The notes below the pieces were generated by a model. It was not told where the DNA came from. It ran no database searches and was given only the letters and a program-made list of their open reading frames with translations. Made by a program: the position numbers and the translations under genes. Below, piece after piece: positions 37,532 to 40,082 of a stretch of 64,000 nt of DNA (the stretch's first letter is position 1; each line of letters starts with the position of its first letter). This stretch comes from a phage: sequence record PZ019086.1. One strand, given 5' to 3'.

Positions 37532-37807
37532 TTATTTCATATTATTGAAATATTCTTCTGCAATTTCATCATTATCGTGGTAAACTTTAGAAGACAGTTT
37601 AACATAACCTTCTGCTGTGAACATGTTAATCACAACTTTTACAGTATACCACTGGCCGTCTTCATTACCCATTACTGCGTAAGTTTCAAACATCGGATGG
37701 TCAGGACCGATAACTTTAATATCATTCACTGTACGACCGAAATCTTCTGAAACACATTTCATAAAGAAGTTGAACAGTTCGCCGTAATTATCCATTTTAT
37801 TCTCCAA
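37532..37807 (-). CDS. Hypothetical protein
   Basis: 91-aa ORF with strong upstream promoter motif. Confidence 0.5.
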   Translation of the reverse strand: MENKMDNYGELFNFFMKCVSEDFGRTVNDIKVIGPDHPMFETYAVMGNEDGQWYTVKVVINMFTAEGYVKLSSKVYHDNDEIAEEYFNNMK

Positions 37808-37824: not shown

Positions 37825-37895
37825 TAGTTGATAGTTGTATAGTACCATAGAAGAACAGGAATGTAAACAGTTTTGTGAAAAATTTTTTAAAAAGT
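37825..37895 (-). promoter_or_regulatory. T4-type early promoter with A/T-rich upstream element
   Basis: Minus strand aaaaatttttcacaaaactGTTTACAttcctgttcttctatggTACTATac. Confidence 0.55.
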
Positions 37896-38081
37896 TTTAG
37901 GGAATTCTAGGGCAGGGAGGGGCAATTAAAGGATAGGATAATATATTATAAATGGTAGAAACTAAATGATGCCTAGAGAGGTCCAAAAAGGCCTAGATAC
38001 CAAAAAGCCCCAACCTTTCGGTCGGGGCTAAGCCTTGCGGCAACCTTGTCGGGGTTCCACCTGCTAAGGCAAGTGTTTGTA

Positions 38082-38171
38082 CGAAACGCCGGGATTCGAA
38101 CCCGGTTATTAAGCAGTTGACGCTACTCAATATTTTTAAAAGGCCATATCTCGACCATATCCGAACGTTCC
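38082..38171 (-). ncRNA. tRNA-like small RNA (acceptor-like stem plus GGTTCGAATCC T-arm, no normal anticodon arm); candidate stable 'species' RNA
   Basis: Minus-strand read ...ccgggTTCGAATcccggcgtttcg; 7-bp acceptor-like pairing CGGAACG/CGTTTCG. Confidence 0.3.
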
Positions 38172-38344
38172 GTCAAAAACGCTACTCGGCTTACGGCAAA
38201 GATATTTCCTCGAATCGATAATTCTGTGCGCCGTTTCTGCTGTGATGTAAGGGGATATTAACAAATCGTAAAGATTTATTAAGACCAGTCCTTACTCAGG
38301 GAACATCAGTCCGACGACTTACCGGTAGCGACCCGGCTTCTTGT

Positions 38345-38420
38345 CTGGTCGAGGCAGTAGGGATCGAACCTACGACCTAGGACTTAGAAGGTCCTTGCTC
38401 TTCCTTCTGAGCTATGCCTC
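38345..38420 (-). tRNA. tRNA-Arg (anticodon UCU), CCA encoded
   Basis: Hand-folded cloverleaf; anticodon loop CTTCTAA; T-loop GGTTCGATCC. Confidence 0.8.
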
Positions 38421-38424
38421 GGAT

Positions 38425-38499
38425 TTGGCGGACGTGATAGGATTCGAACCTATAACCAATCGCTTAACAGGCGATCGCTCTGCCATTGAGCTACACATC
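38425..38499 (-). tRNA. tRNA-Asn (anticodon GUU), CCA encoded
   Basis: Acceptor GGATGTG/CACGTCC; anticodon stem ATCGC/GCGAT; loop CTGTTAA. Confidence 0.7.
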
Positions 38500-38503
38500 C
38501 AAA

Positions 38504-38590
38504 TTGGTGGGGAGTGATGGAGTCGAACCACCCGAGTCGCAATGACAATGGATTTACAGTCCACACCGCTACCTCTACGGGATAACTCCC
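38504..38590 (-). tRNA. tRNA-Tyr (anticodon GUA), long variable arm, CCA encoded
   Basis: Acceptor GGGGAGT/ACTCCCC; anticodon loop CTGTAAA; 87 nt. Confidence 0.7.
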
Positions 38591-38603
38591 CTTAATTCTT
38601 AAT

Positions 38604-38678
38604 TTGGTGGCCCTGGGTGGAATTGAACCACCATCTGGCGATTATGAGTCGCTTGCTTGAACCTTCCAGCTACAGGGC
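38604..38678 (-). tRNA. tRNA with anticodon CAU (Ile lysidine-type or elongator Met)
   Basis: Acceptor GGCCCTG/CAGGGCC; anticodon loop CTCATAA. Confidence 0.7.
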
Positions 38679-38679
38679 C

Positions 38680-38755
38680 TTGGTGCTGATTGACGGAATC
38701 GAACCGCCGACCTTCTCATTACAAGTGAGTTGCTCTACCTACTGAGCTAAATCAG
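38680..38755 (-). tRNA. tRNA-Thr (anticodon UGU)
   Basis: Acceptor GCTGATT/AATCAGC; anticodon loop CTTGTAA. Confidence 0.8.
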
Positions 38756-38760
38756 CAAAA

Positions 38761-38850
38761 CTGGCGGAGGCGATAGGATTCGAACCTATGAGTCGCTGGA
38801 GCGACTGCCGGTTTTCAAGACCGGTGCATTAAACCACTCTGCCACGCCTC
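38761..38850 (-). tRNA. tRNA-Ser (anticodon UGA), long variable arm
   Basis: Acceptor GGAGGCG/CGCCTCC; anticodon loop CTTGAAA; 90 nt. Confidence 0.8.
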
Positions 38851-38852
38851 CA

Positions 38853-38926
38853 GTCTCCGTGGCAGGATTTGAACCTGCGACATTCTGCTCCCAAAGCAGA
38901 CGCTCTACCAAACTGAGCTACACGGA
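38853..38926 (-). tRNA. tRNA-Pro (anticodon UGG), CCA not encoded
   Basis: Acceptor CTCCGTG/CACGGAG; anticodon loop TTTGGGA; the next tRNA follows immediately with no CCA. Confidence 0.75.
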
Positions 38927-38936
38927 GTAAATTAAA

Positions 38937-39010
<74 letters not shown>

Positions 39011-39015
39011 CAAAT

Positions 39016-39102
39016 TTGGTGCGAGAAGTGGGACTCGAACCCACAAGGAAATCATTCCGCAGCATTTTAAGTGCTGTGCCTTTACCAATTTGACCATTCT
39101 CG
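39016..39102 (-). tRNA. tRNA-Leu (anticodon UAA), long variable arm
   Basis: Acceptor GCGAGAA/TTCTCGC; anticodon loop CTTAAAA; 87 nt. Confidence 0.8.
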
Positions 39103-39103
39103 C

Positions 39104-39176
39104 GCTGGGAATAAAGGACTCGAACCTTTGCATCTAGCAGTCAAAGTGCTATGCCTTACCAACTTGGCTAATTCCC
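39104..39176 (-). tRNA. tRNA-Gln (anticodon UUG), CCA not encoded
   Basis: Acceptor TGGGAAT/ATTCCCA; anticodon loop CTTTGAC. Confidence 0.75.
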
Positions 39177-39265
39177 AATTATTAACAAAGGCTCTCAAAC
39201 AAGAACCCTTGATGATAGAGGGGGTATTAATCAGTGCGATATAAGTTAATAATAACACATAATTC

Positions 39266-39817: not shown

Positions 39818-40082
39818 TGCAACGTAATTTCAAAGGATTCTTGAAAATATCATATTCAAGAGGGCCTTTTTCTGTTTCAATAAAGAAATCAAAATTTACT
39901 GTATTAAATTTACGGTCTTCCTTCACTAATTTAACTTGAGAAGATGAACGGTCAATGTAAACCTTTTCAACTTCAAAACATGTTAAAATGCCATAATCAT
40001 CAATCAAGGCTTTAGCTGCTTCTTGATCATATTTATATCCATTTTCAATGGATGATACTTTCGCATAAAGAATCATTATCAA
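39786..40082 (-). CDS. Hypothetical protein
   Basis: 98-aa ORF. Confidence 0.45.
   Translation of the reverse strand: MIMILYAKVSSIENGYKYDQEAAKALIDDYGILTCFEVEKVYIDRSSSQVKLVKEDRKFNTVNFDFFIETEKGPLEYDIFKNPLKLRCIEYNYINMVR

Follow-up and report, generated by a model that had tools for sequence, protein, structure and literature searches.

Homologues of the T4 species RNAs rnaD and rnaC at the 3' end of a Tequatrovirus tRNA operon

Introduction

What is encoded behind the last tRNA gene of the phage genome in sequence record PZ019086.1, where open reading frames are short and part of the minus strand can be paired like a tRNA? We address this question for a stretch of 64,000 nucleotides, called the window below. 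A sequence-only reading of it had proposed tRNA-like stable RNAs, possibly tRNA mimics, at this place.

The species 1 and species 2 RNAs of phage T4 are small stable RNAs that have been known since the 1970s. The role of these RNAs, rnaC and rnaD, is a minor puzzle of long standing in the phage family that has been studied best. In T4, both have been seen on northern blots and are counted among the late RNAs, with no known function (PMC9697503); another report states that their "biological roles are unknown" (PMC3014915), and papers up to 2025 still describe the function of both in this way. Outside the original sequence and RNase III papers of the 1970s, we found no functional study of rnaC or rnaD in the literature. 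For rnaD, a convergent SNP is reported to have arisen as a T4-like phage adapted to a semi-permissive host (PMC12685909).

Identity of the locus

The window is genome sequence of a Tequatrovirus (T4-like) phage. Its minus strand carries a cluster of ten tRNA genes (39177..38346), in which ARAGORN places tRNA-Arg(UCU), with an encoded CCA, at the 3' end (38346..38421; Rfam tRNA score 68.1 bits). In T4 (NC_000866), the misc_RNA features rnaD and rnaC, which also go by the names band D (T4s002) and band C (T4s001), are annotated directly 3' of tRNA-Arg. Alignment to these features identified an rnaD (species 2 RNA) homologue of 120 nt at 38225..38344 and an rnaC (species 1 RNA) homologue at 38080..38218, which is 139 nt long by the T4 annotation, both on the minus strand. 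A single base (38345) separates tRNA-Arg(UCU) from rnaD, and the spacer GAAUUA (38219..38224, minus strand) separates rnaD from rnaC.

Over its full length, the rnaC copy in the window is identical to T4 rnaC at 137/139 positions, and it is 100% identical to the rnaC of phages RB3 and RB10. The rnaD copy matches T4 rnaD in 104 of 121 alignment columns (86%) and scores 126.8 bits with nhmmer. Gene order is also conserved. As in T4, rnaD is placed between tRNA-Arg and rnaC, and rnaC is the final RNA gene of the tRNA operon, with rnaD upstream and a terminator and e.8 downstream; phage RB3 has the same order and curated annotation of both RNAs. The e.8 homologue, recognized from the T4 annotation of e.8, occupies 37795..37532. 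Its promoter, a sigma-70-like sequence of the T4 early type found by scanning (TTTACA and TACTAT at a spacing of 17, with a TG extension; 37839..37867, minus strand), forms the downstream boundary of the locus and lies outside the RNA element.

The two RNAs are widespread among phages, with rnaC found in 746 and rnaD in 735 phage records. Two pattern scans of IMG/VR for rnaC returned 13 true matches among 27 loci and then a few more, and a single metagenome scan added only 2 copies, of the Marfavirus type. In a scan of GTDB genomes, all 10 pattern matches failed the rnaC covariance model, and E. coli genomes gave no match, so that these scans revealed no bacterial homologue or progenitor of rnaC.

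We regard it as almost certain that 38344..38080 on the minus strand encodes two non-coding stable RNAs that are homologues of rnaD and rnaC and originate from the tRNA operon. For the explanation taken as a whole, in which identity weighs most and biogenesis, fold and a mimic role are included, we estimate a probability of about 0.85. The earlier proposal of a tRNA-like stable RNA region downstream of tRNA-Arg is thus borne out by the T4 alignment and the synteny with RB3. It is a rediscovery, since the RNAs were already known, and because both are cut from the tRNA operon transcript, the feature is ordinary for T4-like phages.

Fold of rnaC

Structure prediction, which had been suggested as a check, showed that both RNAs fold far better than shuffled sequences. 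The minimum free energy (MFE) was -50.2 kcal/mol for rnaC (z = -4.55) and -36.7 kcal/mol for rnaD (z = -3.52), with 0/200 shuffles as good in either case. For rnaC, 34 distinct homologous sequences from at least 8 T4-like genera were collected, and the copy in the window scores 161.7 bits against the covariance model of this family.

Judged by covariation, rnaC is tRNA-shaped, a cloverleaf-like four-way junction, and it has no anticodon arm. The consensus fold comprises 47 pairs, with 89.6% of the cells of the 34 sequences paired, versus 36-46% when the pairing is slid. Changes on both sides were seen in 31/47 pairs and were matched by 0/500 shuffles, in a covariance-model alignment of the 34 sequences that was fitted to the model structure and hence leans towards it. 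The same four-way junction appeared in 12/13 independent MFE folds of divergent homologues. Counts for the acceptor stem, arm 2, the T arm and the loop-loop contact were also made on a structure-blind MAFFT alignment. Because MAFFT misaligns arm 1 between subfamilies, arm 1 was analyzed on the covariance-model alignment, and the MAFFT alignment was used only for the acceptor, the 3-bp base of arm 1 (columns 12-14/81-83), arm 2, the T arm and the loops.

The acceptor stem, as covariation indicates, is formed between the two termini of rnaC itself. Its 5' strand CGAUUCG (RNA 2-8; 38211..38217, minus strand) pairs with its 3' strand CGUUUCG (RNA 131-137; 38082..38088, minus strand). The stem covaries, with A-U in Tequatrovirus (11 sequences) versus G-C elsewhere (22 sequences). 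The tandem U.U mismatches in the stem are kept in 33/34 sequences; the acceptor stem of PM2 is perfect (AGGUUCG/CGAAUCU).

Arm 1 (RNA 9-78; 38141..38210, minus strand) follows the acceptor without a linker and is a long irregular hairpin in the position of the D arm, according to MFE folds and covariation, with both-side changes in 19/25 pairs (helices 2 and 3). Its apical loop is UUUGACGG (38177..38170), with the core UUGACG (RNA 43-48; 38171..38176, minus strand). After a linker of 8 nt comes arm 2 (RNA 87-112; 38107..38132, minus strand), a 10-bp stem with compensatory changes in 9/10 pairs and a 6-nt loop, CGUCAA (38122..38117). The T arm CCGGG-UUCGAAU-CCCGG (RNA 114-130; 38089..38105, minus strand), which contains GGTTCGAATCC at 38103..38093, has 100% of its cells paired, and one of its pairs covaries between U-A and G-C (18:15). 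The T loop is non-canonical in IME523-type sequences of Kanagawavirus (UGCAUGC) and in PM2 (UUCGGUC), which weakens the case for strict T-loop mimicry.

The covariation also bears on the coding potential of the locus. No open reading frame of 60 aa or more covers 37900-38340, as had been observed before; the longest, on the minus strand, are of 45 aa (37993..38130) and 42 aa (38136..38264), followed by one of 34 aa. Protein-coding annotation in relatives had been named in advance as an argument against an RNA, and many automated GenBank records do carry a "hypothetical protein" across rnaC and rnaD. The existence of the 42- and 45-aa frames agrees with such annotation, but these frames begin with TTG and cross RNA and terminator boundaries, and homologues differ by indels of 1-2 nt. 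Moreover, substitutions are compensatory base-pair changes in those 31 pairs, curated records annotate RNA, and discrete RNAs were seen on the T4 northern blot (PMC9697503). The curated annotation, the limit of 45 aa, the non-triplet indels and the covariation together outweigh the automated records, and we consider small proteins from this locus extremely improbable.

An internal stem and the case for an unusual tRNA

The sequence-only reading had placed the tRNA-like element within 90 nt at 38082-38171, with an acceptor-like stem, a T arm and no normal anticodon arm. The T arm was correctly recognized, and the pairing of CGUUUCG (38088..38082) with CGGAACG (38172..38166) does exist, extending with an added A-U to 8 bp with one G.U. 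This internal stem is not the conserved acceptor stem, however. Across 33 homologues it lacks covariation; pairing reaches 86.4% of cells, less than the 88.4% averaged by shuffles, and in 19/33 sequences the middle pair is broken. A fold forced to use it was 13.3 kcal/mol worse than the fold using the 5' end of rnaC. As an acceptor stem it was dropped for lack of covariation and for its worse fold energy, and the 90-nt element gives way to the whole 139-nt rnaC, with an acceptor from its own termini, as the tRNA-like unit.

If the internal stem (RNA 46/47-53 with 131-137/138) were nevertheless taken as the acceptor, rnaC would be a real but odd tRNA that contains an intron or has a long variable arm. 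Besides the 8 bp of the stem in the window copy, calls in relatives point in this direction, where ARAGORN or the records label the 3' 94-95 nt as tRNA-Lys(ttt) (G4507), tRNA-Met (PG7) or tRNA-Phe (Pet-CM3-4). The "anticodon" thus varies between relatives though the molecule is the same, and we treat these calls as artefacts for that reason. In the window, neither ARAGORN nor Rfam tRNA calls a tRNA at the locus, and no tmRNA was found there by ARAGORN or Rfam. An Rfam/Infernal search, another check that had been suggested, matched no family to rnaC or rnaD, either at the gathering threshold over the whole window or at E<=10 at the locus. It returned T-arm-driven matches below threshold to tRNA-Sec, mascRNA and isrK; the tRNA-Sec match over 38081-38173, which could be counted in favor of an odd tRNA, reached 16.6 bits versus a gathering score of 47. 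Finally, such a tRNA would leave out 45 conserved 5' nucleotides, which covary as the 5' strand of the acceptor and as arm 1. Together with the behavior of the internal stem, these observations largely refute an unusual tRNA, to which we assign a negligible probability.

Complementary loops of rnaC

The loops of the two arms, UUGACG and CGUCAA, are complementary at 6/6 positions in 33/34 homologues and form 4 bp in PM2, so that 99.5% of the cells of the loop-loop helix are paired. In Marfavirus only, UUGACG/CGUCAA is replaced by UUGGCG/CGCCAA, a double change from A-U to G-C; this covariation represents a single evolutionary event, in the four Marfavirus-type sequences of the alignment. Calculated duplex energies are -5.5 and -7.6 kcal/mol. 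Complementarity and covariation suggest that the two loops probably kiss, which would lock the RNA in a compact shape. Because arm 1 far exceeds arm 2 in length, the RNA would have to bend sharply for its own loops to kiss, and the complementary loops may instead serve dimerization or an alternative fold.

Structure of rnaD

The predicted structure of rnaD has a 5' hairpin, GCCGG-GUCGCUA-CCGGU, at 38337..38321 (minus strand), and a long irregular rod, at whose conserved base GUCGUCG (38318..38312) pairs with CGGCGCAC (38233..38226). The tip of the rod, at about 38291..38250, is hypervariable. RNAalifold on 16 homologues gave 22 pairs, of which 5 show compensatory changes. Compared with T4 rnaD, a 5' part of about 50 nt and a 3' part of about 35 nt are conserved and the central tip differs; T-even phages have at least three unrelated versions of it (T4-, T2- and JS10-type). 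The 3' end also differs, reading ...CACC-A in T4 and ...CACA-G in the window. A duplex between the whole rnaC and rnaD was predicted at -63.9 kcal/mol, versus -49.4 +/- 5.4 kcal/mol for shuffles, the best of which reached -68.0 kcal/mol, and is uninformative.

Transcription and processing

The operon ends in an intrinsic terminator at 37996..38029 (minus strand), detected by a terminator scan and in the centroid fold. It has the form AGCCCCGACC-GAAA-GGUUGGGGCU followed by UUUUUGG; with 10 pairs (38029..38006), 7 of them G-C, and a U-run behind, the hairpin qualifies as a rho-independent terminator, and records of relatives carry a terminator annotation at the corresponding site. Immediately 3' of rnaC, the fold shows another hairpin of 7 bp, CACUUGC-CUUA-GCAGGUG (38058..38075, minus strand), which T4 conserves. 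The GC-rich hairpins noted before at 37995-38075 are therefore present (38075..38058 and 38029..38006), but as one hairpin and the operon terminator rather than as further small RNAs.

A motif scan found no late-promoter motif (TATAAATA) inside the locus, and the nearest ones on the minus strand, at 40030 and 40338, lie upstream of the tRNA cluster. In T4, the tRNAs share one precursor of about 1.75 kb with the species I and II RNAs, and this transcript terminates after the species I gene (PMC2330249). With the same operon position in the window, the suggested origin from the tRNA transcript, as for T4's two species RNAs, is upheld. We propose that rnaD and rnaC would be transcribed as the 3' end of a tRNA operon composed of ten tRNAs, rnaD, rnaC and the terminator, and that the host tRNA-maturation machinery would free both RNAs from the precursor; for the copy in the window, this presumes RNase P cleavage and 3' processing as for tRNAs. 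The spacer GAAUUA would then be the 5' leader taken off rnaC.

Features of rnaC are compatible with this route. As the acceptor stem is stacked on the T stem and followed by a discriminator-like U, a 5' cut by RNase P and a stop of 3' trimming at the stem should be possible. The base directly 5' of the acceptor stem is U or A in all homologues; by the T4 annotation the RNA begins with U1, one base 5' of the first acceptor pair, which makes the exact RNase P site uncertain by 1 nt. At the 3' end, the discriminator-like U (38081) is followed by A-CAA, and U-ACA is encoded rather than U-CCA. This holds for most homologues, so that a tRNA-like CCA end of rnaC is not assured; the homologues of Marfavirus and PM2 encode U-CCA.

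Spacing is tRNA-like as well. With the exception of two Marfavirus-type contigs (about 65 nt), rnaC starts 3-7 nt past a tRNA or rnaD in all lineages examined, and its 3' end often lies 5-10 nt ahead of the next tRNA. Mid-cluster copies of rnaC with a tRNA on both sides occur in Karamvirus, Moonvirus and Gelderlandvirus-like phages; in Karamvirus these tRNAs are tRNA-Trp and tRNA-Gly.

Possible functions

Lacking an anticodon, rnaC cannot decode. We propose tentatively that it would act in trans as a tRNA mimic, binding or titrating a protein that recognizes the acceptor/T-arm end of tRNAs. This protein might be a toxin of a defence system or a host enzyme that acts on tRNAs, and rnaC would be a dispensable accessory, of importance in certain hosts. 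The convergent rnaD SNP (PMC12685909) fits such a host-dependent accessory role. A mimic role of rnaC is possible, though we would not wager on it.

A more far-reaching version, which we think doubtful, is that rnaC represents a phage-specific class of tRNA-shaped, non-decoding decoys for a host acceptor-end factor, with rnaD as a second host-range RNA. The traits of such a class would be tandem U.U mismatches conserved in the acceptor, a T arm, two arms locked by a 6-bp kissing-loop contact, presence in T4-like phages of at least 8 genera, and a location that is always in tRNA clusters. The decoy might target a tRNA-processing enzyme or a defence toxin directed at tRNAs. If true, the decoy role would give a function to two RNAs that have been unexplained since the 1970s.

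About as doubtful is the converse, that rnaC and rnaD do nothing in trans and act in cis, as modules for the processing or stability of the tRNA operon. They might be 3' trailers that shield the tRNAs from 3' exonucleases, elements that organize cleavage by RNase P, RNase E or RNase III, or degenerate tRNA genes that are still processed. Both are always found within or at the end of tRNA clusters, and in Tequatrovirus they are the final elements ahead of the terminator, as expected for such modules. The central part of rnaD is hypervariable, and rnaC could have inherited its acceptor and T arm from a tRNA gene, given that the covariance model matches real tRNAs weakly (20-28 bits). Yet mid-cluster copies of rnaC need no terminal protection. 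In addition, at least 8 genera keep the 139-nt fold together with both loops and the junction sequences, with many compensatory changes, a constraint greater than a spacer would need, and the T4 RNAs are stable and build up late in infection (PMC9697503).

It is also conceivable, with somewhat lower probability still, that one or both RNAs are base-pairing regulators (sRNAs) of host or phage mRNAs. Segments that could make contact are the loops UUGACG/CGUCAA, the A-rich rnaC linker and the single-stranded 5' end of rnaD. Conserved single strands are indeed found in the linker, UUUAAAAA, where AAAAU is kept, and at the 5' end of rnaD (ACAAGAA). The SNP acquired during host adaptation (PMC12685909) could be read in this way too, and the RNAs have been named "small regulatory RNAs" (PMC9697503), in a text that does not give evidence for the term. 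However, neither rnaC nor rnaD has a terminator hairpin and U-tail of its own, the duplex prediction for the two RNAs gives no guidance, and the loops of rnaC are complementary to each other and co-vary, which argues for an internal contact rather than an external target. Mimicry by rnaC is our preferred, if tentative, functional proposal.

Significance

Rfam has no family for either RNA, and as a consequence the locus is left without annotation in hundreds of T4-like genomes, listed as a "hypothetical protein", or, in the case of rnaC, mis-called as tRNA-Lys, tRNA-Met or tRNA-Phe. The covariance model built here would correct this. The comparative fold also leads to testable hypotheses, which concern the acceptor made by the termini, the U.U mismatches, the co-varying loops, and the choice of ACA versus CCA at the 3' end. 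Immunity directed at tRNAs, and the ways in which phages counter it, are under active study, and a conserved and abundant tRNA look-alike is an obvious candidate player.

Comparison with known systems

The tRNA-like domain of tmRNA, bacterial YrlA/Y-RNA modules, mascRNA and the 3' tRNA-like structures of plant viruses are mimics of the acceptor/T-arm half of tRNAs that do not decode. Such mimics reach tRNA enzymes (RNase P, the CCA-adding enzyme and sometimes synthetases) without decoding. None of these domains matches rnaC by sequence or model, the mascRNA score of 14.2 bits being due to the T arm only. In contrast to them, rnaC has no tag ORF and no Ro-binding stem and is not the 3' end of a messenger, and its putative kissing arms are without counterpart in any of these families.

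With canonical tRNAs (RF00005), rnaC shares a 7-bp acceptor set directly against a T stem of 5 bp, the T loop UUCGAAU and a discriminator base at the 3' side, as well as the tRNA operon, the tRNA-like spacing and the layout of the four-way junction. It differs from them in its length of 139 nt, in the absence of a D arm, a 7-nt anticodon loop and an anticodon, in the tandem U.U mismatches of the acceptor, and in a 3' ACA instead of CCA.

With T4, the tRNA sets differ, as the window has Met, Tyr and Asn in place of T4's Ile and segB, which is also the case in RB3. The rnaC copy itself is the same gene as T4 rnaC; it has the same length, likewise follows rnaD and precedes the terminator and e.8, and differs by two substitutions only.

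Identity and layout of the locus

Ten tRNA genes (Gln, Leu, Gly, Pro, Ser, Thr, Met, Tyr, Asn and Arg) were identified with ARAGORN and Rfam on the minus strand of the window (39177..38346). The longest ORF downstream of tRNA-Arg has 45 aa, in agreement with the sequence-only reading, which had noted that no long ORF covers this region and had proposed stable small RNAs like the two species of T4. In the T4 annotation (NC_000866), tRNA-Arg is directly followed by the misc_RNA rnaD ("small, stable RNA; species 2 RNA", 119 nt), then by rnaC ("species 1 RNA", 139 nt) and gene e.8. Alignment to T4 places rnaD at 38344..38225 (minus strand, 120 nt, 104/121 columns identical) and rnaC at 38218..38080 (minus strand, 139 nt, 137/139 identical). 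The gene order is exactly that of phage RB3 (AJ884578), which has curated rnaD and rnaC features. The T4 annotation, the alignment and the RB3 gene order identify this as the T-even species 1/species 2 RNA locus, as had been suspected. A blastn search with 38345..37850 against 50,697 phage records matched 810, nearly all of them T4-like phages of Escherichia, Shigella, Yersinia and relatives.

rnaD and rnaC close the tRNA operon at its 3' end and are followed by its terminator. The GC-rich hairpins noticed previously in this region are present, but they represent a 7-bp hairpin (38075..38058, minus strand) and a classic intrinsic terminator with a U-run (38029..38006, minus strand), annotated as such in relatives. 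In many relatives, for example phage Lutter (locus L003, 2315-2891), this terminator is directly followed by a cassette of ~520 bp comprising a late promoter (TATAAATA), an uncharacterized 474-nt ORF and another terminator copy, nearly identical to the first. The cassette is absent from the window (terminator 37996-38029); the duplicated 36-nt terminator looks like the edge at which a mobile ORF was inserted or recombined in. At 37833-37901 (plus strand), Rfam gave a sub-threshold match to RT-6 RNA (21.5 bits, E = 0.042; gathering score 46.7). It overlies the A+T-rich stretch around the promoter of the e.8 homologue and probably arose by chance.

As in RB3, the tRNA set has Met, Tyr and Asn in place of the Ile and the segB homing endonuclease of T4. 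tRNA-Arg(UCU) (38346-38421) shares only 40/78 aligned columns with its T4 counterpart (T4 locus L001, 2674-2748), versus 137/139 for the adjoining rnaC, which marks a sharp mosaic boundary. tRNA-Tyr(GUA) (38505-38591) is unusually divergent, scoring 30.2 bits against the Rfam tRNA model (gathering score 29), compared with 59-74 bits for the other nine.

Secondary structure of rnaC

Secondary-structure prediction, a check proposed in the sequence-only reading, gave minimum free energies of -50.2 kcal/mol for rnaC (dinucleotide shuffles -34.8 +/- 3.4, z = -4.55) and -36.7 kcal/mol for rnaD (-26.4 +/- 2.9, z = -3.52). None of 200 shuffles equalled the native fold in either case.

With rnaC numbered according to the T4 annotation (U1 = 38218), its 3' strand 131-137 has two mutually exclusive partners, the 5' end (2-8) or an internal segment (47-53). 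The latter was chosen as acceptor stem by the sequence-only reading, by ARAGORN and in some GenBank records. The 7-bp pairing exists, between CGUUUCG (38088..38082) and CGGAACG (38172..38166), but it is not the conserved one: it lacks covariation, is paired in 86.4% of cases (below the shuffle mean of 88.4%), has its middle pair disrupted in 19/33 sequences, and makes the fold 13.3 kcal/mol worse when enforced. The "anticodon" on this fold also varies by phage (Lys in G4507, Met in PG7, Phe in Pet-CM3-4), and we regard it as very improbable that rnaC is simply an odd tRNA. Covariation, energy and the inconsistent anticodons together decide for the 2-8/131-137 pairing, which has a tandem U.U at 5/134 and 6/133. 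A4-U135 of Tequatrovirus is replaced by G4-C135 elsewhere, and in PM2, C2-G137 becomes A-U and both U.U become U-A, giving a perfect helix. On these comparative data, the conserved acceptor stem is formed by the RNA's own 5' end and its 3' strand.

Independent minimum free energy folds of 12 of the 13 divergent homologues share one four-way junction. It consists of the acceptor stem (2-8/131-137), arm 1 (9-78), an irregular, long hairpin whose apical loop is UUUGACGG, an A-rich linker (79-86), arm 2 with loop CGUCAA (87-96/103-112), A113 between arm 2 and the T arm, the T arm (114-118/126-130), and U138 after the acceptor 3' strand. In the alignment of our rnaC covariance model (34 distinct sequences, fitted to the structure), 89.6% of cells are paired in the 47 nested pairs, versus 36-46% with partners slid; both partners have changed in 31/47 pairs, and none of 500 shuffles reached the observed values. 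A structure-blind MAFFT alignment, covering the acceptor stem, the 3-bp base of arm 1, arm 2, the T arm and the loops, shows compensation in 9/10 arm-2 pairs and 91.9% overall pairing (34-47% when slid).

The T arm recognized earlier (CCGGG-UUCGAAU-CCCGG, 38105..38089) was confirmed. Most rnaC sequences have a canonical loop in this arm (UUCGAAU or UUCRAGY), exceptions being IME523-type Kanagawavirus (UGCAUGC) and PM2 (UUCGGUC). Most homologues, that of the window included, encode the 3' end ...CG-U-ACAA; Marfavirus and PM2 encode ...-U-CCA.

A candidate kissing loop

The core of the arm-1 loop (UUGACG, 43-48) and the arm-2 loop (CGUCAA, 97-102) are exactly complementary. This complementarity is kept in all rnaC homologues (99.5% of cells paired), and was retained in every true match of the first IMG/VR pattern scan even though that pattern had no loop constraint. 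Both loops are exactly 6 nt in a second subfamily (Proteus, PEi20, Ursula, Kosakonia, NM4.3), and in Marfavirus both are altered (UUGGCG and CGCCAA). One compensatory event and invariant complementarity are suggestive of an intramolecular kissing loop, but do not prove it. Since arm 1 greatly exceeds arm 2 in length, such a contact would require a bend at an arm-1 internal loop; an rnaC dimer is an alternative. A direct repeat, GAGUAGCGU, occurs at 31-39 (38188-38180) and 91-99 (38128-38120), each copy running into one of the complementary loops, only in the subfamily of Tequatrovirus, Karamvirus and Kanagawavirus (IME523-type).

Structure of rnaD

rnaD is not tRNA-like. In the RNAalifold consensus of 16 homologues, 8-12 and 20-24 form a 5' hairpin (loop GUCGCUA) that shows A-U/G-C covariation, and a long rod has 27-33 paired with 112-119 at its base. 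U40-A107 becomes A-U in JS10-type sequences, and the tip occurs in three or more unrelated forms. Pectobacterium phage PM2 and Marfavirus-type contigs (L007, about 240-345; L017, 2357-2281) have, within their tRNA clusters, a core resembling the 5' part of rnaD (a hairpin with loop GUCGCU, then AAGUCGUC..ACU..GUUCCCUG). Its nhmmer E-values are weak (2e-5, 1.6e-4), and tRNA genes lie between it and rnaC.

Distribution and annotation

rnaC matched 746 phage records (491 at >= 99% identity) and the more variable rnaD 735. Divergent rnaC homologues (65-88% identity), drawn from the phage collection and IMG/VR pattern scans, were found in Kanagawavirus (IME523, Kosakonia 305), Karamvirus (PG7, Pet-CM3-4, RZH, PS49), Moonvirus (Moon, KM16, NM4.3), Marfavirus (Marfa, EI, F48-like), Mosugukvirus PM2, a Gelderlandvirus-like Proteus phage, Edwardsiella PEi20, Citrobacter Ursula, EcS1 and Erwinia COW86c. 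A Proteus-type query yielded no additional lineage, E. coli genomes gave no match, all 10 pattern matches in GTDB genomes failed the covariance model, and the metagenome scan added only two copies, both Marfavirus-type. In JS10 (Dhakavirus; L010, 901-1020), rnaD directly follows tRNA-Arg and rnaC was found neither by nhmmer nor by the covariance model; therefore the two RNAs are not an obligate pair.

The Rfam search, also proposed in the sequence-only reading, matched no family at rnaC or rnaD (best tRNA-Sec, 16.6 bits versus a gathering score of 47; mascRNA, 14.2 bits over the rnaC T arm only), and ARAGORN made no tmRNA call, ruling out this identity for rnaC. Mis-annotation is systematic. 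Depending on the phage, records or tRNA finders assign the last 94-95 nt of rnaC to tRNA-Lys(ttt), tRNA-Met or tRNA-Phe (loci L005 946-1039, L004 946-1040 and L009 946-1041; record MK327940), and many records place a "hypothetical protein" over rnaC and rnaD. ORFs of at most 45 aa, indels of 1-2 nt and substitutions as compensatory pairs speak against this coding reading, and small proteins encoded here are hardly credible.

Biogenesis and possible role

In every lineage examined, rnaC starts 3-7 nt past a tRNA gene or rnaD, except in two Marfavirus-type contigs (~65 nt from the upstream gene), and it often ends 5-10 nt ahead of the next tRNA; in Karamvirus it is flanked by tRNA-Trp and tRNA-Gly. 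This tRNA-gene-like spacing argues that rnaC may be excised as a tRNA is. In T4, one precursor of ~1.75 kb holds the tRNAs and both RNAs and ends after species I (PMC2330249), and northern blots detect both RNAs, with late-accumulating behaviour (PMC9697503). RNase P would cut at the 5' side of rnaC via the acceptor/T-arm minihelix, also freeing the rnaD 3' end; the same minihelix would support tRNA 3'-end trimming, and the stable, compact fold would allow accumulation.

The roles of both RNAs have been called unknown (PMC3014915; PMC12685909). We tentatively favor, at a probability of roughly 30%, a trans-acting tRNA mimic engaging a protein that reads the tRNA acceptor end, because the acceptor, junction and loop sequences of rnaC hardly vary whereas its arm stems diverge, because rnaC is unable to decode, and because a T4-like phage repeatedly fixed a SNP in rnaD as it adapted to a semi-permissive host (PMC12685909). 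This recurrent change in the neighboring gene suggests host-dependent accessory functions. A purely cis-acting processing or stability module appears unlikely, and a base-pairing sRNA somewhat less likely still.

Together, the original observation is confirmed and its interpretation supported. The rnaC family lacks an Rfam model although it occurs in many T4-like genera, and its frequent mis-annotation would be cured by a covariance model. The feature itself is already known as rnaC and rnaD of T4, to which the present analysis adds exact coordinates, a corrected, covariation-supported fold, a candidate loop-loop contact, and the range of the family across many T4-like genera.
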